A stretch of DNA of 62,974 nt, filler included, from Globobulimina sp. (taxonomy: Eukaryota), in NCBI GenBank assembly GCA_003354225.1. It is 35 parts of 35 records of this genome, joined end to end, with 100 filler letters (N's around TTAATTAATTAA, not from the genome) between each part and the next. Parts side by side here need not be neighbours in the genome. Positions count along the whole stretch, not along the records: positions 7,213 to 8,915 come from PIVH01012930.1; 34 more parts are not named here. One strand, given 5' to 3'. The position numbers were made by a program, and so were the translations under genes. This document shows, in pieces, positions 7,113-59,905 of this stretch. The notes under the pieces were generated by a model. It ran no database searches, was not told the DNA's origin, and saw only the letters and a program-made list of their open reading frames with translations. Position 1 is the first letter of the stretch, and each line of letters begins with the position of its first letter.

Positions 7113-7443
7113 NNNNNNNNNNNNNNNNNNNNNNNNNNNNNNNNNNNNNNNNNNNNTTAATTAATTAANNNNNNNNNNNNNNNNNNNNNNNNNNNNNNNN
7201 NNNNNNNNNNNNTGACCCTCTGCCACAAAATGTCACACAGTTGCAATATCTCACCATGTATTTGCAAAAGTATGCTCAGCAACAGTACCTATACTCCCAA
7301 CAATATTACCATCAGATCAATATGAATTGCAATCGATATAATAACAATCACATTCAAACAGAACAAAAGATCAAAAAAATCAGTAAACGCCTAAAACAGG
7401 TGGGGGGAACTGTGGTAACCATTATGAATAATCATATACAATA

Positions 7444-8061
7444 TTGCGAAATGATATCGATAATGTGGCGCGAAATACGATTAAAATTGCAGCAAAAATG
7501 AAGAAATTGAAGACAATGACAGTGAAAGGTTTACAACAGCTTTTGTTGGTGAAGTCACACGTGATTATAAATCTGAAAAAGATTAAAGAAACTGACAACA
7601 AATTTGTGAATCATTATTTGAGACTTCACGAAATCAACGCAGAAATTATTGAGAGAGTGGATAGATTGGACACTGTCGTGGATACAATGAACATCGACGA
7701 CGAACTGCTTATCGCATCAAATTGTAAGGATGTGAGTCTGAATGGTGGAGAGGTCGGTTTATGGGATTGGAAACAGGGCGCGTCATTTCTGTTGGGTGTC
7801 ATTAAATATATGAATCGACGAAGATGGTGGGTTGGAGAGAACAAAGATACACTGTCATTGATTGTGACTTTCGCAAATAATTTCGTTTCCAATTCGGAAC
7901 CTGTGATAATGATATACGATTCCAGAGTCAACTGCGAATCAAAATTGCAATTTGAAATCTCATATAATCGAAAATACTCGCATAATATCAAAGTATTATA
8001 CATTGCCGATTTTAAAAAGCAAAATATGGGGCAAATAATATTCAGTGACACTGTGGGCTGA
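7444..8061 (+). pseudogene. Hypothetical coding remnant, probably part of a decayed gene extending to ~8330
   Basis: 205-aa ORF with a TTG start; in-frame TAA stops upstream; short Cys-rich continuations in other frames downstream. Confidence 0.3.
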
Positions 8062-8380
8062 AAATGAATGGATCACATGCTTGTGGCTCAGTGGGAATAA
8101 GAAATGGAAAAAACATTCGTATGACTATGCTGACCGCGACGATGTAATGATACATAAGAAAAACATGATTTGGATCCATACCGCAAACCGTCCCGGTGCA
8201 TGTTCGAAATATGATTGTACAACACATTAAACCAGCTCTGACATGCAAATGTAAAACACAATTGCAACAAATCCAGGGATCAGGAAAAATAACAGGAATG
8301 AAATGTATTTGGTGTAATGATATTTTTAATTAAAAGAAATGTTGTGTACACAACTGACTTGAGTAAGTGATTTTATAAAT

Positions 8381-8915
8381 TTATTGATCTACCAAAAAGT
8401 CCTTCAACACAGTTACCAAATGGTAACTGACCTCCTTGACGACACACCCACACTCTAACCACATTTTGAATGCCAATTTGTTTCCAATCTTTTTTGTTTT
8501 CCTTTGAAAACTCTTTAAAATCTCGCCAAACAAAATAAGTTTCTTATCTGCACCATTGTGAGTTAATATACTATTGATTGACTTAAAATGATCGATGTCG
8601 ATCAAATATAACATATAATTGTCAATGTAACCAGAGGCACAAATCTCTTTCAAGAGAGACATGAGTGCTTCTCTGTCCTTCATATCGCATAAAGTGTCCA
8701 CTGATATAGACGTATTACTCCTAAGCGTCGCTAATATACGTTTTTCGATTGTTTTATTACTTCTCAATTTTATGCCAATACTGCTATGCAAAAATCCAAT
8801 CCATTTATCCTTGGCCTCACACTGCAGAGAGTATATATTGTATTATAGTATCAGCATCCATTCCTAGCAGAGATATTTTATGCATTCATTTGTAGATTGA
8901 GCATTGCAATGATCA
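8381..8915 (-). pseudogene. Degenerate GGDEF (diguanylate cyclase-like) domain fragment
   Basis: DTLCDMKDREAL..LYLIDIDHFKSINSILTHNGADKKLILFGEIL matches the GGDEF N-terminal half; a 1-nt frameshift at the A-run 8495-8490 gives VVRVWVCRQGG; in-frame TAG and TAA upstream. Confidence 0.7.
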
Positions 8916-9114
8916 NNNNNNNNNNNNNNNNNNNNNNNNNNNNNNNNNNNNNNNNNNNNTTAATTAATTAANNNNNNNNNNNNNNNNNNNNNNNNNNNNN
9001 NNNNNNNNNNNNNNNTCAATACAAATACAACGGTTTGCAATGAACAGTACATCATTGCCATTTTATTGTCGTGTCAAAAATCAAAAAAAAAACTTGTTGT
9101 GTAGCAACATCAGA

Positions 9115-10718
9115 ATGAATGCACCAGTCAACGCAAGCGGACAGCCGCAAGTAGAGGGACATAGTATGCTGTTCAATATACATTTAATACAATGGATAAA
9201 TAATAGCATTTACTTACATTCAGATCTGCTTTTACAGCAACAAACAGAGGAAAATCGATGGTTAAAGAATGAACTGAAACATAAAAGGAATACTATTAAC
9301 TGTTTATTGATCATAATAATAATGATGATCTGCATAATCGTTAAAAAGGAATATCAAAGTAATCCAGCCGTTGCTTCTGTTGTTCCCGTGACCTCTTGTG
9401 ATATAACTGATATTGAAGAAAATACCCAGTCAAATACTGCAGAGGTTTATAGATCCTTTGAAAATACGATTCTAAAACAACAAGATCCAGATCCTACCAC
9501 ACAACAAACACAACCTCAACCTCAAGGACAAACACAACAAGATCCAGATCCTACACAACCTACCACAAACACAGAAGATATAAATGTTGGAGATGATCTT
9601 TATGAATCTTCCAATGAACAATGGAATGTATATGCAGCGTCTAAAGATCTCACAATTACAAAACGTACCGTCAACCATACGGGTTTTGAATATAATGTTA
9701 GCTCAGCATTTTTAACGAATGTTGTCTTTCAAGGTGCTCATCATTGGCAATTTAAGGTGGAGATGGCGCCGAATTCTTCAGTTGATTTGTTTTTAGGAAA
9801 TGTATCAAATTCAAATTTATATTTTGGAATTTGTATAGATGATAATCATGAATGGAAGAATGGTCACATTCATACAATATTAGGATCCATAGCCAACACT
9901 TGTTACGTATTTAATTGTTGGGCAGCAATGATAAACAAACATTCTATGGATAATGAATGGACATCGCCGTGGTCATATGGTAAAGTATGCGAATATGGCG
10001 ATGTTATTGATATGTTTTTAAATTTTGATCCATTGTTGTTGTCATTCAGTATAAATGGAGCACATTATGGAATTGCACATAATATCAAACCAAACCATAA
10101 ATATATCGCAGCGATCAGTAGCTGCGCACAGTACAATTACATTGAACTTACCACTTATGATCATGAACAAGATAAAGAATTACAAGAATGGGATATATTG
10201 GAAGGGTGGGACAAAAATGCGATAACATTGGGGATTGCTATAAATAATCACATTGTAAAACATGACAAAGCGATCTTTGGTGTTGGAACTGCATTTTTAG
10301 TGAATGTCGTTGAGAGTGGACAGCATCATTGGAAGTTTAAAATAATAGGACGTCATCACCTAATTTACAACGACACAAAAGGTCCATGGATACTGTTTGG
10401 AATTTGGAATGTTGAGAATGAGGCACAAACCTGGGACAGGCTTGGGAAAGAGGCAAACACTGCATATGTGTTTGACAGTTTTGCCCAACGACTCAATATA
10501 CACGAATCAGGGGAGTGGACAGATTTGTGGTCGTATGGTAGCTTATGTTGGAATAATGATGTGGTGGATATGTGGTTAGATTTTGATGAATTGTCGTTAT
10601 CCTTCAGTATAAATGATACATATTATGGTAAATCACATACAATCAAAGCTAAAAGATATATAGCAGCCATATCGAGTATGACTAACCATAGCGATGTTGA
10701 GTTGTTATTATATGATAA
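9115..10718 (+). CDS. Single-pass membrane protein with two SPRY/B30.2-like domains (3' partial)
   Basis: TM segment LLIIIIMMICIIV; duplicated AFL.NVV..G.HHW.FK...YG..C...DV.DM.L.FD.L.LSFSIN..YG; probable 60-nt intron 9164-9223. Confidence 0.7.
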
Positions 10719-28844: not shown

Positions 28845-29978
28845 ATCCGTTGGAAAATGGCATTGTTCGCAACTGGACCGACATGAAAATAATATGGGAT
28901 TATACCTTTGGTGAATGCCTAAAAATCAACCCGCCCGAACATAAAATATTATTAACTGAGCCGCCTGCAAATCCCTTTGATAACAGACTAAAAATGTATG
29001 TATATTCCCATTCTATTCTGTTTCTTATTTGTATGCGAATTTGCGTATTATAACAGGTATCAACATATGTTTGAGACTTATGGCTTTAGCTCAGTGATGG
29101 TGGCCATCCAAGCCGTATTAGTGTTATATGCGCAGGGATTGTTGACCGGTGTGGTGATGGATTCTGGTGACGGCGTATCGCATGTGATCCCCGTGTATGA
29201 AGGCTATGGATTACCGAACTTAATTAAGCGCTTAAACGTGGCCGGAAGACATGTGACCAAACAGTTGATCCATTTATTGCAGTTAAGAGGCTATTCGCTG
29301 AACAGATCGGCAGATTTCGACACGGCGAGGCAAATAAAAGAGAGATTGTGTTATGTCGGCTACGACTTGGACGTGGAACGAACGTTGGCGATGGAGACTA
29401 CTACGCTCGTACAACCCTTTCAGTTACCGGACGGGAGGATTATTAAAGTGGGACGCGAGAGATTTGAGGCGTCAGAGGTCCTATTTGACCCCGCCAAGGC
29501 TGGTGTGGAAGGTATGTGTGTTGTTACACTCTCTGCACTGTGTCATGCGCCATGCTCAAGGCCATGATGTTTGGAAAATGCTTACTTCACTGTGACTTAC
29601 TTAAAAAATGAAGGTGATGGCTTGCATCAATTATTGTTTAATTCGGTGATGAAGGCGGATATTGATTTGCGATCAGAATTTTTTAAACATATTGTATTGT
29701 CGGGCGGCACCACCATGTTTCAAGGGTTACCGTCGAGATTGGACAAGGATATCAAGGAATTGTGGATAGCAAATGTAGCAAAAGGTGATAGATCGAGGAT
29801 TGGCAAATTTAAATTAAAGATTGAAGATCCGCCAAGACGAAAGAATATGGTTTTTTTGGGTGGCAGTGTGTTGGCGGATATTATGAAGGATCAACAGGAA
29901 TTTTGGTTAACTCGACAGGATTATAATGAGCAAGGCGCGGCGAGAGCTATCAAAAAACATCACGGCATTCGGAGATAA
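28845..29978 (+). CDS. ARP2: Actin-related protein 2 (5' partial)
   Basis: [57 protein letters not shown]; introns 28996-29056 and 29512-29613. Confidence 0.95.
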
Positions 29979-30712
29979 AACAACTTAATGTGTATCATAA
30001 ACAATATCATTAATATGTCGCTAATTTTTTAAGTTGTATTGTATGTAATTATACTAATTTTCATAATCATTGTCGTTCATGTTTTAGGATCCATATACTT
30101 TTGGGATTTTGGAACTCTGCTATTCTTTTGTCCTGTTGCAGACTGAAACGTTTCTCAAGGTTTTGAACATGGTTTTCTGTTTATCAGCAACGAATTTGTT
30201 ACCCTATAACGTTTTTGACACCCTGCAATTCATTTGTATATAGACGCAAAGTTCTAAAAGTCCTGGAATTCCTAAAAACGACAATGATTATGAAAAGAAA
30301 CTGAGCGACAATGATTTTGAAAATTAGTTTAATTATTCTGTTTCTCACTTTGATATCATTCAGAAATTGGATAGTCAATAGAGGCTCGACCAAAATTTGT
30401 GCCCAAGATATATATAGGTTCAAGCATCTCAAACACTCAAAAGAACGGTGAGTCCCAGAGAATCACGATTGACCATCAGATGAGCTACCCAGAATGACGG
30501 AATATATCGTTAAACAATATATAATATTCCAAAAGATAACCCCTGTNNNNNNNNNNNNNNNNNNNNNNNNNNNNNNNNNNNNNNNNNNNNTTAATTAATT
30601 AANNNNNNNNNNNNNNNNNNNNNNNNNNNNNNNNNNNNNNNNNNNNGGTGTGGTTAAAAACAGCTTAGCGTTTAATAATGTGACCAAAATAGCTAAAGTT
30701 CATTGTAAAAAT

Positions 30713-34150: not shown

Positions 34151-34383
34151 NNNNNNNNNNNNNNNNNNNNNNNNNNNNNNNNNNNNNNNNNNNNTTAATT
34201 AATTAANNNNNNNNNNNNNNNNNNNNNNNNNNNNNNNNNNNNNNNNNNNNTATGGTGAAAATAAACATGTACACATTCACCTTTTTTAAACTGCTGAACA
34301 ACTTCCGAACATTCCAACCTCGCAACGCCTAAACTTCCGAACCTCTCAACCTGCATTTCTTTCATTGGCTGAAAAATACTTAA

Positions 34384-35952
34384 TTAACACTGTATGTCCT
34401 TTTCCTGCAGAAACTGCATGGAGAGCGTGAATGGAACAATGCAACATCCAAACACGATGTAAGCAAATGCAATTTTCCTTTTTATTTCATAATGTTGCTG
34501 ATATTTTAATTTTGGAGTTGTCATTTTATAGTAAAACAATCCCGGCAAAATAAACGATATTATTGGCGAACCAATGGAGCCCACACACTCTAAAACCACC
34601 GATAAGTCTTTGACCAGCATCGATATCATAAACGAACCAAAGAAAATGCCATAAGTCAACAGATAGAATAGTTTATAATCAATTTTATTAATATTCTTAT
34701 CCCAAATTAACGAACACAGACTCTTGCGGCATGGATGGCATTGCAACGGATACGACCACGCCACGGCCAGTGACAAAGCAATGCGTACAATCGCCACCGA
34801 CATTGACTTAGGATATGATTTTAGTACATCACTTGCTACACATTGTCCATATGTAAAATATCCACAATATCCAACAATGCAATACATCAAAACAGACAAA
34901 GTCAACGAATTTGTAATCACCACATTCAACCTACGCAGTGTATTATTTTTCAGCTCATTCGTAACTGAAAAACTATTCTGATGGCAGGTAAATGCAAAGA
35001 TATATATTGGTATTACTTTTAAAAACGAGATCATCCCTCCCTTTGGAGGAAAAGCAGTCCATTCAATCCCCGCATCGTTATCTGAATGCAATGCATCGCT
35101 CGCATATAACACCATAATTAAGCTCACGTAAACAAAGCATAAAATTGCTATAATTGAGGTAAAACGCAAAGAGTCCATTTTTTTCAAGCGTATTACAGGA
35201 AATATAAAAAGCAGCGAAAATATGGTGATCCATAGCTGTCTGCGCGTCCATACAGACTTTTCTGTGTATTTTGCAACGTGGTTTTTATGCATTGACTGAT
35301 TATTAATGGAACGCCAACAAATTGCCAACATGTACATTTAAGATACTAAACAGAGTCATGAATGGTACCTAAATGTGCGGGTAAGAATTCTTTCAAAACG
35401 TCAGGCAATAAATCGCCGATTATCACAAAATACGAAGTGCCGACACCAAAACATTTGATCACAACCGCAAAATCAACCAATTTTTTAGCACAAGGCACGG
35501 AGTGCTCAGCTAATGTATAATAGGACGCATTTGGAGAGCAGATTTTTGCTGCAGAACATGAGAGGTTTAAGCCAATAAAAGATAATATCGCCATAATTAT
35601 GAACAATATGATGGATAATAAGTAGCCTGTTTTACTGATAGCATATGGCAAACCTAATAACCCCGCTCCTATGATGGTGTTCGATAAGTTCATAACTGAG
35701 GAAAATATGGTTGCTTCGCTTTGGACTACGAATTGCAACAAAGATAAACTACGCTGAGTGCCGTGAACTGGTTTGACGATTTGCGATGATGTTAATGAGT
35801 CTGCTTCGTAGTAATTGCCTTGGTTTGTGTGTAATGGTGATTTGGTTCTTAATAACGATGCACTAAGACTCTCGTCATTGTTTGATGGTGCATCAATTAC
35901 TTCAGTTTCAAAGGCCTCAAATGTTGATTTTTTAACATCATTATGTTCTTTA
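34384..35952 (-). CDS. AAAP/SLC38 (Avt-like) amino acid transporter (5' partial)
   Basis: SSVMNLSNTIIGAGLLGLPYA, IFAFTCHQN, SYPLQCHPCR, ISFILPGLFY; probable intron 35368-35262. Confidence 0.9.
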
Positions 35953-36052: not shown

Positions 36053-37754
36053 AAAAGAAAAGAGGCAACAACGGCCGCAGCAATCAACACATTCTCCACG
36101 ACTCCAAACAAAACAAGGCATCATTAGCTCGGGGAAGAAGCATCGGACAAAAATTTCTAAAATCAACCATTTATAGCAAAAAAATGAATTATACCGAAAT
36201 CACAATGAATTTATACACGTATAAACTGAATCAAATCCCCGGCATAATTGATGAAATAATACGTTGTGTGGTGACTGACGCACCGAACCTCAAACGCATT
36301 TGCTTCGAAACGGGATATGGAAAACCTAAAAAAGCCATTGATATTCGAAAGTGTGCCAGTCATTTTTTACTAAATACTTTGGGTTACACCTCCGACAAAA
36401 GTGGCAGTCCCAAGACCTTCAAAGTTATCCTATCCATCCATTCATTTTATACACACTTTCCACACAACATCAAATATACAAAAAAATAGTTTCTCAACGA
36501 CCACTCAAATCGAATTGTCATTTTCCCGCAGGAATACATTGATTTTTTGCGAGAAGAGACCGAACGGCAAGAAAAAGAACGAGAGATCCTCGCAGCCAAA
36601 AAGGCTAAAAACAAGAAAAAGTCCGTGAAAAAAATGAAACGCGATTTCGTTCATAATAAATGGAAAAAAAACCTCAAATACCCAGCTCCAAAGAAAAAGC
36701 GCCAACCCATTCTCGACAAAGAAGGCCAAGTTCTCGACCCTCGCTTTTTTACTCCGGGCGGCGACGACGATGACGACATCGTAGAGTCAGAGGATGAAAG
36801 CGCTGCGGATTCGAGCGGTAAGGAAATAGAAGAGACTGAGTCGACTTTTTTGCGCAACTTCGCCAATTTGCAAGTTATGATGCAAGAATCGTCGAATATG
36901 AACTCCAAAGTCGCCAAATCAAACAGACGCAGTGGGAACAGACAGAAACATAAAAAGAAAAAAGCAGTTGACATTTTTGAAGGTGTGGCTGACGACAAAG
37001 AGAAGTTCGAATATGTTGCGCCCGATGCATGGCGCTATAAACGCAGCGCAAACACAGAGCCGATGTATGAACCTGACATTGGTCGCTCTAAGACACTGGC
37101 ATCTGGACAGTGGGAATGCGAATTTTGCTCATTTACCAACGACAAACATGTGGCAATTTGCAGTATGTGTTTCAATGAAAGTTTTGCGAAGCGGTCTGCC
37201 GCGTTTTTGAATGTGTTGGCTGACAATAACCAGCAAAACGAGCAGAGTACGAAAAGGAAGAAGGTTTGTCGCGACCGCTGGCATTGTGAGATTTGTACTT
37301 TTCTCAATTCGAACGAAAGTGAGCTGTGTGATATGTGCGGCGGTGTCAATGCAGAACGGGAGAGATATTTTGATGCTCAACATGAGAATTATGGTGACGG
37401 CTTTTTCCAGGATGCGAAGCCTAAAAGGAAGCAGGTTGGGAATGTCAGGAAGCAGAGGGAGAATGAGGAGAAAATGGAGAGGTTGGAAGTGGCAAATCGT
37501 GTGATTGTGAGCAAGAAATTGAAGCCGCTGAATGTGAAAAAGAGTGTGGCGGTGTTGGACCAGAATGAGTTGCATAAAAATGGCATGCGTTCAGTGCATG
37601 GACAGATAGCGAGTATAAACCGGGAGTGGCAGGCTACGGTTTGGAAGGCGCACAATGATAAACAGAAACGCATTGACATGTTGCAGAGGAATGGAGGTGG
37701 CCATCAACAACATGGACAACCTCCAGCACCTCAACAAAAATATGTAAATCGTGG
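36053..37754 (+). CDS. Protein with a possible Smr-like domain and two RanBP2-type zinc fingers (partial)
   Basis: WECEFCSFTN..CSMC and WHCEICTFLN..CDMCG; intron 36424-36489; RICFETGYG is only weakly Smr-like. Confidence 0.65.
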
Positions 37755-55870: not shown

Positions 55871-56595
55871 ATATACAAATCGTAAATACGATCATCAATT
55901 TTACATTAATTAATAGGCATTTTTGTGTTATCGTAAAAATCTATTTACTAAGGGGAAAATTGATTTTTTCAGTGTAAAAACAGATTTTTACGATAAAGCA
56001 AAAATGCCTATTAGAAAAAATGATATCAGATCATTCTGTACAGCACAAAACTGCCCAAAACAACTACAAATCAATAAAATACCTAAAAAAGAGAGAAAAG
56101 GCTGCTTTGGGTTCCAAAGGATGCGGTATCTGTACCTCACAAAACAGAAACGGAACCCAACTATTATTATGTGGTGATTTTTACATTTCAAATAAACTAA
56201 ACAAGAAAATAAAAATTAGACAACACTTTACATGCAATTCGAAATGGATTATTTACATTATGTTCTGTATAAAATGTGGCATTGAATCCATTGGTTCCAC
56301 ACAAAACGATGCAAAAACCAGAATAAGCCAACACAAAAACGCTATTATTAACAATAAGGATTCATTTAACTATCCGATGGTGAGGCACTTCAACAGAATA
56401 AACAGTGTATGTTACAATGAAAACAAACTAAAAAACTGTAGATTTATGATATTGGATGGATTGAAAAATAAAAACACAATTTCATTTCAAGCGGCTGATC
56501 AAAGATTGAATAAATTAGAAATTGAATATCAAGGAAATTTTATGACACATTTCCAATCTGGTAATGACAAAAAAGATTTTAATAATCGTGGATAA
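55871..56595 (+). mobile_element. Decayed Penelope-like retroelement 3' end (GIY-YIG endonuclease)
   Basis: GCFG/SKGCGIC (frameshift ~56113), FTCNSKWIIYIMFCIKCG..SIGST..RISQH..MVRHF..LE..GND; stops upstream. Confidence 0.8.
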
Positions 56596-57809
56596 ATTCA
56601 ATAAAAATTCAATAAAAACAACAAAGAAATTAGAATTGACAGATCGAGAGGGAAATATATCTATAATCTATGGAATATTAATTGGAATCTAAACAAAGAA
56701 ACAAAAATTTACGAATTTAATAGAGATAAATTATATGTGATACATTATAATGAAACAAATAAAATAAAATACACAAAAAGATACAACAAAACACAAGAAA
56801 CAAAAAATAAAAACAAAACAAAAAGAAATCAGAGTATTATTAATCTATTTACAAAAAACAAGGAAAACGATGATGTTTGATTTGATTTTGAGACATATTC
56901 ATTAGTTCGTTATTTTTGTACAAATATTATAATTGCTATTTTATTATGGAGCAGTTATTAATTATTCCGTGTATATCATCGATTAAGTGTTTGTTTATCA
57001 ATTTATTTGTATGTTTATCACTGTTAAAATACTAAATGTCACTCAAATTATTCTGATTGACTGCTTATGGTTTGGTCTCATGTATTATTTATAATTAGTT
57101 ATTGTTTTATTACTATCCGCCACATGGAATTAATTCGTGTCGCAAACTAAGTGTATATGTTATTGTTGTGTATGAGTTGAGTTTTATGATTGATTGATTT
57201 TATAAATCTATGTACAAATTCTATATGAAATCTTTGTTTTGTTATAACATTTTCAAATATTAACGGAGATTTCTTCTCTTTTAATGTATAGATACTGTCT
57301 CTCTTTTTATTTGTGAATATTTTTGTCAAAACTTTGTTTTATAAAATTGTCCGAATTCTATTTTTTGTTTATAGGGAGTTTTATTTTTGTCTTTTATGTC
57401 GAAAGATCCCTGATTTTTATTTTTTATCTTTGTCCTGGGTTCGGACTTTTTTATATTATGCATTTCTTTAACTTTAATTGTGTGTTTGTCTATTTTTTAG
57501 TGTGGAACTTCATGTTTTTCTAATTTAATTTACAAAACTCAAACGTGTTCGTAAAGGTCATAGTTTCGACCNNNNNNNNNNNNNNNNNNNNNNNNNNNNN
57601 NNNNNNNNNNNNNNNTTAATTAATTAANNNNNNNNNNNNNNNNNNNNNNNNNNNNNNNNNNNNNNNNNNNNCCATATTTATTTCTTAAATAATGGAGAAT
57701 TTAAAGAAGGATAACAAATCCAAAAATTCTTCGAGCAAATGATAGCTATGGTTTCTCAGTCATGCTTCAAAAGAGATATATATATTATTGGATGCATAGT
57801 TATCATTTG

Positions 57810-59198: not shown

Positions 59199-59589
59199 CG
59201 CAAAAGAAAATGTTTCAAAAATTCTGATCTACAACCTACAAATTTAAAGTTAGCTCAAACCATGCAACAGTTAATTCGGTTCAGACGGTTAGCGGATTCG
59301 TTATTACCCGATGAATTCAATTCGTTTTTAGTACAAATATTCAATAACTTAGATAAGAAAAGTATTATTTTANNNNNNNNNNNNNNNNNNNNNNNNNNNN
59401 NNNNNNNNNNNNNNNNTTAATTAATTAANNNNNNNNNNNNNNNNNNNNNNNNNNNNNNNNNNNNNNNNNNNNTAATAACACAAAAAAACTGTAAAACTCA
59501 AGGGGGCACACAAAAAAAAACAAAAAAAAACATAAATGTGATGATGGGATTTGAACCCAAATCTTCTTTATAAGATGCTCTCTTTGAGC

Positions 59590-59905
59590 CACCACCACCT
59601 CCTCATCATCCACACCCCCATCCACATTCCCATCAACACCATCCTCCACCTCCACCTCCTCATCCCATCCCATCCACATCCCATCCACATCCCATCCCAT
59701 CCACATCGACCTCCCCATCAACCTCTTCATCACGTCCCATCCCAACCTCCACCTCCTCATCCTCCACCTCCTCATCCTCATCCTCCTCATCCTCCACATC
59801 CTCCACCTCCTCATCCACTACCTCCTCATCCAAACACCAAATCCACCGCATCATCCACTGCCAAATCCACCACCAAATTCACGGCAAAATCCACCTCCAC
59901 AATTC
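59590..59905. repeat. C/A-rich low-complexity repeat (CCTCAT/CATCC/CCA)
   Basis: Direct inspection. Confidence 0.85.

Follow-up and report, generated by a model that had tools for sequence, protein, structure and literature searches.

A remnant of a GGDEF gene is carried by one short contig of the 62,974-nt stretch of Globobulimina sp. DNA (assembly GCA_003354225.1) analysed here, which as a whole is referred to as the window. On its minus strand, this contig (7213-8915; 1,703 nt, 35.3% GC, with linkers on both sides) holds the N-terminal half of a GGDEF domain, the domain of the enzymes that synthesise cyclic diguanosine monophosphate (c-di-GMP). We put at about 70% the probability that the element is a non-functional, exon-sized fragment of ~390 nt, namely a pseudogene or partial duplicate of a eukaryote-encoded stalk-helix gene of the ankyrin/zinc-ribbon/GGDEF type. 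As a gene fragment the locus is ordinary; the interest lies in the family behind the fragment, which, judging by its sequences, gives a hint that c-di-GMP signalling may exist in a protist other than a social amoeba. The window consists of 35 contigs of 1,701-1,703 nt each, with N44-TTAATTAATTAA-N44 between neighbours. Being a concatenation of unlinked contigs, it gives no biological meaning to adjacency, and only contig 7213-8915 bears on the GGDEF finding because the remaining contigs are unlinked to it. What the original prediction had said of "the contig" stands for 7213-8915, with the correction that this contig is only 1,703 nt long and is one of 35 that were joined.

The GGDEF fragment and its broken reading frame

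The minus-strand open reading frame (ORF) proposed at 8381-8791 is present, and the stop-to-stop frame around it (8384-8842) comprises 153 codons. The Pfam comparison that had been suggested as a check was run, and the frame matches the GGDEF family PF00990 at an E-value of 1e-7 with 32.3 bits, above the gathering cut-off of 23.8 bits, over profile positions 3-75 of 161. The same stretch is matched weakly by 16 NCBIfam cyclase or phosphodiesterase models, those for diguanylate cyclases at E-values of 3.5e-8 and weaker, with TIGR00254 (29.7 bits) staying under its cut-off of 37.4 bits. The first reading frame (8489-8842, minus strand) covers the putative end of a zinc ribbon and, as linker, the stalk helix ISVDTLCDMKDREALMSLLKEI, together with the N-terminal half of the GGDEF domain, which has the residues LIDIDHFKSIN...HNGADKKL...LKSFQRKTKK. 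A family profile built from 14 relatives, with both window rows left out, scores 121.5 bits on this frame (E 1.3e-38, positions 135-233). Both motifs of the N-terminal half, D-x-D-x-FK..N and H..GAD, are thus present as LIDIDHFKSIN and HNGAD; their residues are those assigned to metal and base binding in PleD and WspR. The seven positions of this half that hardly vary across the family (D49, L51, D82, D84, N90, H95 and A98) are all kept in the window copy.

The frame is lost, as had been proposed, at the A-run at 8495-8490 (minus strand), which counts six A. One added A gives ...RKTKK DWKQIGIQ..., which aligns with ...SKTKN EWNNMGIQ... of the relatives and carries the reading on to RQGG; the shifted frame gives KKDWKQIGIQNVVRVWVCRQGG, then QLPFGNCVEGLFGRSINL up to a stop. 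The second reading frame, DWKQIGIQNVVRVWVCRQGG (8430-8489, minus strand), comprises an insert particular to the family and the strand that precedes the signature motif, and ends in the two glycine codons GGA GGT. It is recognised by the family profile at 13.5 bits (E 8e-6 over six frames, positions 223-251, last residues FrqGG). The relatives' consensus, ...LK.LE.KT...W...G....IW.FRQGGDEF..., agrees residue for residue with frame 1 as far as QRKTKK and with frame 2 from DWKQ to RQGG, and a tblastn search with 15 relatives returns the same two-frame pattern (8836..8489, then 8516..8430). As the match to the relatives runs in the first frame and then in the second, the frameshift is real in the sequence as given, and corresponds to ACA AAA AAA GAT minus a single A.

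Homology stops exactly after the two glycines, at 8430, beside the hexamer GTCAGT (8431-8426), just where the original prediction had placed its end. The active-site motif GG[D/E]EF is consequently incomplete in the window copy, which reads RQGG and then QLPF...; the non-homologous tail QLPFGNCVEGLFGRSINL with its TAA stop (8373-8429, minus strand) belongs to the shifted-frame reading and is without profile support. The absence of a DEF exon from the contig was borne out: read in its three minus-strand frames, the rest of the contig (7213-8430; 1,218 nt) is free of [DE]E[FYLIM] tripeptides, and profile positions 252-414, representing the C-terminal half of the family, have no match in any of the six contig frames. 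When submitted to Pfam alone, the 56-residue shifted-frame piece, which is too short for such a search, gave no GGDEF match and only DUF3575 at an E-value of 0.19, while a word-index search with the 153-residue ORF at near length produced seven candidates, none of them significant. A MAFFT pairing of 'KEVSYHL...VTVLKDF' from frame 1 with 'DEFALVV...LQKF' was rejected on the grounds that its codons overlap the glycine codons of the other frame and that the profile does not support it. Scans for repeats and tandem repeats found no repeat or low-complexity tract at the break, and neither blastn nor tblastn, run with the contig on the window, turned up a further copy of any part of it.

Relatives of the fragment and the enzyme they probably encode

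An exhaustive HMMER search of 1.84 billion representatives returned 80 matches at E≤1e-3, of which eight reached E≤1e-10 and none E≤1e-30, and the top relatives are 43-53% identical. With a ten-sequence family alignment, the word-index search retrieved 70 proteins at E≤1e-5, of which four score at family level (309-468 bits); the source given for three of these is 'eukprot', and for the fourth, P0088 (230 residues on a contig of 1,066 nt), 'ncbi'. The best match outside the family is a sensor cyclase of Bowmanella, at 86 bits. No near-identical bacterial gene, an outcome that would have spoken against a host-encoded family, was found: scanned against bacteria and archaea (one genome for each of 185,579 species), the window ORF matched 78 loci with best-segment identities of 25-57%, the higher values being confined to segments of fewer than 45 residues and matches of at least 70 residues reaching 25-36%. 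Pfam GGDEF scores of family members are 34-71 bits, as against 146-348 bits for bacterial-type matches in the same lists.

The domain partners of the family are also telling of its origin. Ankyrin repeats are joined to GGDEF in P0005, P0006, P0081 and P0087, a PH and a SPRY domain flank it in the order PH, GGDEF, SPRY in P0013, and P0033 combines it with UQ_con, the E2 ubiquitin-conjugating domain; the fusions of P0033 and P0013 were not met in the literature searched. A quick IQ-TREE phylogeny, with SH-aLRT support only, was calculated from 139 rows, comprising the window copy (X at the break) and those 138 of the 154 retrieved proteins that cover at least 100 profile positions. The phylogenetic check places the window copy in a clade of 30 rows (SH-aLRT 100, stem 1.11) that contains all 21 family-labelled rows, with 109 rows outside it; the tree has no bootstraps, its bacterial sample is biased to matches of the queries used, and the family labels derive from profile scores. 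Within that clade, it belongs to a nine-row subclade (SH-aLRT 96) with P0087, P0001, P0003, P0081, P0004, P0088, P0005 and P0006, on a terminal branch of 0.33 next to neighbours of 0.26-0.31. The window copy is thus supported as a member of a eukaryote-type clade of stalk-helix GGDEF proteins set apart from bacterial GGDEFs. In the original prediction, the family had been called "intron-bearing, hence host-encoded". Its host type is upheld by the distant bacterial matches, the eukaryote-type fusions and the separate clade, and the argument does not rest on position 8431.

Intact relatives, for which a search had been suggested, do occur. GG[DE]E[FYLIM] is kept in 20 of the 31 relatives examined, nearly always as FRQGGDEF, the other 11 being short or truncated entries, and the invariant columns of the family alignment include D-x-D, N, H, A-D, Q-G-G-D-E and a C-terminal K. 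A model of P0088 from a 20-row alignment (pLDDT 89.5, pTM 0.79) shows an N-terminal helix of 31 residues followed by the GGDEF fold, in which the two glycines sit in the hairpin that connects strand 124-133 to strand 136-143. Among known structures it is matched best by GCN4-WspR (3i5c, E 3.5e-13), SiaD, the coiled-coil+GGDEF protein DgcB and WspR, at E-values of up to 2.4e-12, and the sequence matches in the PDB are, in 21 out of 21 cases, diguanylate cyclases or GGDEF proteins. On the strength of motif and model, intact members would be active diguanylate cyclases that dimerise via the N-terminal stalk helix in the manner of WspR, DgcB and SiaD.

Mapped on the P0088 model, the window fragment reaches only as far as the hairpin tip, and strands 136-143, 178-184 and 212-217 are missing. 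Lacking DEF, the C-half strands and the C-terminal phosphate-binding region (K..G[KR]N), it can therefore form no enzyme and no fold, and makes no c-di-GMP; the early impression of a non-functional copy is supported by the frameshift and by the missing DEF and C-terminal half.

The proposed splice donor

The hexamer GTCAGT (8426-8431, minus strand) had been put forward as a spliceosomal donor in phase 1, within the second glycine codon, and as such it is unproven. The GT is there, at 8431, but it is part of the glycine codon GGT, which homology already accounts for. GTCAGT occurs 13 times in the window against an expectation of 15.8 by hexamer count, giving no donor enrichment, and no acceptor followed by a next homologous exon was found within the 1,218 nt after 8431. 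The window offers one gene for comparison: a divergent actin-like gene (28845-30546, plus strand) has two GT-AG introns at about 28996-29056 and 29511-29610 (~61 and ~100 nt). Both begin with GTATGT, unlike GTCAGT, and no other window intron was verified; a Pfam scan of 56 short frames beside known genes yielded no new exon pairs.

What the relatives say about an intron near the motif is indirect and points both ways. P0088 and P0004, the closest intact relatives, run unbroken from MSNYVYC through GGDEF, and should they be ORFs simply called on genomic contigs, they would speak against an intron at that place in their subgroup. In P0023, P0034, P0035 and P0044, homology is lost right after FR and gives way to unrelated tails (FVFIIF..., CVHIVL..., FEREFA... 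and FVNDKY..., respectively); P0079 ends at FR, P0002 breaks after FRQ (FRQ+W) and P0022 ends at GGDE. The first tail residue after FR (F, C, F and F) has a T-initial codon in four out of four, as would be expected if an AG|GT donor within an AGG arginine codon were read through. In the profile, P0044, P0023, P0035 and P0079 cover roughly one and the same stretch (118-141 to 248); they have overhangs that lack homology, and look like single-exon ORFs of the same unit as the window fragment. Going by these protein tails, the GGDEF family is probably intron-bearing, and the window fragment would correspond to approximately one exon (8821-8432, 390 nt). The relatives' break, though, sits 8 nt upstream of 8431 and not at the proposed donor.

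Upstream and downstream surroundings

At the 5' side of the fragment, an acceptor-like tctctgcag (8822-8830, minus strand), read from the sequence, lies in phase 0 directly before the cysteine codon TGT at 8821-8819 and is a possible 5' exon boundary. The upstream in-frame stretch (8843-8914, minus strand) holds two stops, TAG at 8866-8864 and TAA at 8845-8843, and represents either an intron or sequence that has decayed. Nothing in it significantly matches the zinc-ribbon or ankyrin part of the relatives, and the contig ends at 8915, 73 nt upstream. The profile alignment begins at residue 45 of the gene frame and its envelope at residue 28; MAFFT sets YSLQC of the window copy against YvyCkqC in the Cys-x2-Cys ribbon region.

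Downstream, a converging ORF of 209 codons and of no known family occupies 7432-8061 (plus strand). Its codon usage resembles that of the window's confirmed genes, with 0.173 bits per codon in frame and negative scores in the other five frames, the 15 confirmed genes ranging from 0.093 to 0.39. Over 7432-8058, it has no Pfam family, no usable Atlas match and one spurious PDB match (E 0.14). It fills the space where a 3' GGDEF exon would need to sit. The GGDEF piece itself scores 0.049 bits per codon, below all 15 reference genes.

Other features of the window

The 34 linkers, which carry stops in all six frames, lie first at 1704-1803 and then every ~1,803 nt, and the contigs are apparently ordered by size. 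Among the 37 long ORFs scanned across the window, 20 contain a Pfam family, largely of kinds typical of eukaryotes, including actin-like, dynein stalk, CAP-Gly+RRM, TLDc, ubiquitin, VWD, MutS, EF-hand and transporter families. From these families and the GT-AG introns of the actin-like gene, the assembly is eukaryotic and AT-rich. No GGDEF, EAL, HD-GYP or PilZ family was detected by Pfam among the 37 ORFs, a negative that covers ~60 kb of unlinked contigs and says nothing on the genome. The neighbouring contig 9016-10716 (plus strand) is a full-contig ORF with two SPRY-like repeats, scoring 25.2 bits, just below the Pfam cut-off. A tie between it and the SPRY-bearing P0013 was considered and discarded, as the tblastn similarity is not meaningful (E 4.0) and the contigs are unlinked.

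Several further irregularities were recorded elsewhere. On contig 34251-35952, an Aa_trans gene (minus strand) falls into two frames (Pfam profile positions 3-118, then 120-406) around a stop-bearing segment at 35338-35348, for which no unique GT-AG solution was found; this junction could be a short intron or another assembly frameshift. Contig 36053-37754 (plus strand; 43% GC, no Pfam family) has an in-frame TAG at 36487-36489 directly after an A7 run (acaaaaaaatag), dividing the same-frame ORFs 36055-36486 and 36490-37752, and could stem from an error, a nonsense mutation or read-through. Rfam calls a tRNA at 59537-59598 (minus strand; 36.4 bits, gathering threshold 29), and ARAGORN finds no tRNA in the window. 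ORF 55978-56592 (plus strand) has a weak match to the GIY-YIG nucleases (24 bits, E 4.9e-5) and lies on contig 55871-57571, the most AT-rich of the window at 26% GC, which is possibly organellar or derived from a mobile element.

Discussion

The reading of the locus as a non-functional fragment brings together the frameshift, the truncation, the lowest codon score (0.049) and the upstream stops at 8866-8864 and 8845-8843 as signs of decay, although these stops would be harmless if the stretch 8843-8914 is an intron. According to this reading, a single internal exon of the ancestral gene would have been left at the locus, keeping the linker helix together with the catalytic palm domain's first half and the metal- and base-binding residues of that half; one base would have been lost from the A-run, and the piece would stop at the tip of the GG hairpin. 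Several points weigh against it. The terminal branch of the window copy is ordinary (0.33) and its conserved N-half residues are intact, so that there is no sign of long decay. A homopolymer is a classic place for a sequencing or assembly error, which makes such an error plausible for the frameshift; a chimera at 8430 is likewise plausible in a 1.7-kb piece of a very fragmented assembly, and a long intron may follow 8431. As for the family, 'eukprot' is the source label of a eukaryote proteome collection and names no organism, and the enzyme activity of its intact members is suggested by sequence and model.

The intact-gene explanation, in which the A-run is an error, a real intron starts from G|GTCAGT at 8431 and the DEF exon lies past an intron of more than 1.2 kb or on another contig, is unlikely. 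Seven relatives (P0023, P0034, P0035, P0044, P0079, P0002 and P0022) lose homology at nearly the same place, the first tail codon is T-initial in four out of four as from AG|GT read-through, the N-half residues are perfectly conserved and the acceptor-like tctctgcag before 8821 is in phase. Yet the remaining 1,218 nt hold neither a DEF triplet nor a C-half match, and such a long intron would contain or overlap the opposite-strand ORF, whose codon bias marks it as a gene. The only verifiable introns of the window are ~61 and ~100 nt long and start with GTATGT, while GTCAGT is not enriched (13 against 15.8) and its pyrimidine at +3 is uncommon among splice donors. The break in the relatives also falls 8 nt upstream of 8431, and P0088 and P0004 continue uninterrupted through GGDEF. 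More improbable still is an assembly chimera, in which short reads from a GGDEF family with many copies became linked to unrelated sequence at or near 8430 and the truncation is artefactual: contigs that are all ~1.7 kb do suggest that the assembly is highly fragmented, many family members look like paralogues and homology ends abruptly at a codon boundary, but the junction bears no repeat or low-complexity tract and no part of the contig has a second copy in the window.

For a bacterial origin, from a contaminant or an endosymbiont such as an ankyrin-rich intracellular bacterium, it can be said that GGDEF genes are overwhelmingly bacterial, that contig 7213-8915 has no recognisable eukaryote-only gene and that DgcA-like genes are common contaminants of eukaryote assemblies (PMC4931340). 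We regard it as highly improbable in view of the 25-36% identity of the long bacterial and archaeal matches (one genome per each of the 185,579 species), of relatives at 50-54% identity with the eukprot label and with fusions to E2, PH, SPRY or Ank, of the stem of 1.11 that parts the clade from 109 bacterial-type rows, and of a low coding density, a broken gene and a neighbouring ORF with host-like codon usage. Least credible of all is a programmed change of frame, in which A_AAA_AAG (8495-8489), a heptamer that we take to be a slippery site, is in phase for -1 ribosomal, or transcriptional, slippage. A -1 slip does give KTKK-DWKQ, the reading favoured by the family profile, but deleting one A from ACA AAA AAA GAT (A7) creates the heptamer automatically, which is hence not independent evidence; moreover, no relative has the two-frame structure, and the corrected product still ends at GG.

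If the fragment is taken as the trace of a eukaryotic family, its nearest known counterparts are the bacterial stalk-helix cyclases WspR, Caulobacter DgcB, SiaD and PleD, with which the intact relatives share the catalytic fold, the motif and a long N-terminal helix. The P0088 model matches 3i5c, 7e6g, 6ttr and 3bre at E-values of 3.5e-13 to 2.4e-12, with structural sequence identities of 17-24%, and the positions of D-x-D, N, H..GAD, GGDEF and K..GKN are common to bacterial cyclases and relatives, the window fragment carrying the first half of these. The differences are an insert particular to the family, which includes a conserved Trp ahead of FRQGGDEF, and the I-site, an RxxD placed 5 residues upstream of GG, which the relatives compared do not show. 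The partners differ as well, being Ank, E2, PH/SPRY and Cys-rich ribbons in the family as opposed to REC, PAS, GAF or EAL in bacteria.

The dictyostelid DgcA offers the established eukaryotic comparison. In two reviews, c-di-GMP is described as a developmental signal in Dictyostelium, and diguanylate cyclases are said to have been known only from prokaryotes before DgcA (PMC5055082, PMC5113120); a third paper attributes DgcA to lateral transfer from bacteria, its closest relatives being prokaryotic (PMC4931340). The present family resembles DgcA in being a GGDEF protein encoded by a eukaryote. It differs in having eukaryotic fusions and in forming, in the tree of the window copy and the retrieved proteins, its own long-stemmed clade; the NCBIfam model named DgcA (NF041606) scores 14.4 bits on the fragment (E 0.014). 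The locus also has the outward likeness of the bacterial GGDEF contaminants described in the same source (PMC4931340), that is, a GGDEF match on a short contig of a eukaryote assembly, and departs from them in having no close bacterial relative among the genomes scanned, eukaryote-type relatives, an AT-rich broken locus and a low coding density. The family is undescribed in the literature searched on foraminifera, Reticulomyxa, Rhizaria, protists and ankyrin-eukaryotic proteins, a search from which subscription journals were mostly outside.

Beyond the fragment, a wider proposal may be entertained, namely that an expanded, intron-bearing and eukaryote-specific family of stalk-helix GGDEF cyclases exists, fused to ankyrin repeats, an E2 domain or PH+SPRY domains, that the protist lineage behind this DNA uses c-di-GMP, or a cyclic dinucleotide akin to it, as a second messenger of its own making, and that the family is a second origin, older than and independent of DgcA, wired into ubiquitin and membrane-lipid signalling. 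We advance this tentatively, at somewhat less than even odds. GGDEF matches in eukaryote assemblies outside Dictyostelia are usually dismissed as contamination (PMC4931340). The present family does not answer to that description, because it has no close relative among the 185,579 bacterial and archaeal species scanned (one genome each), eukaryotic partners, a conserved motif and signs of introns. If its intact members are active, eukaryotic c-di-GMP signalling would be broader than one amoebozoan lineage.

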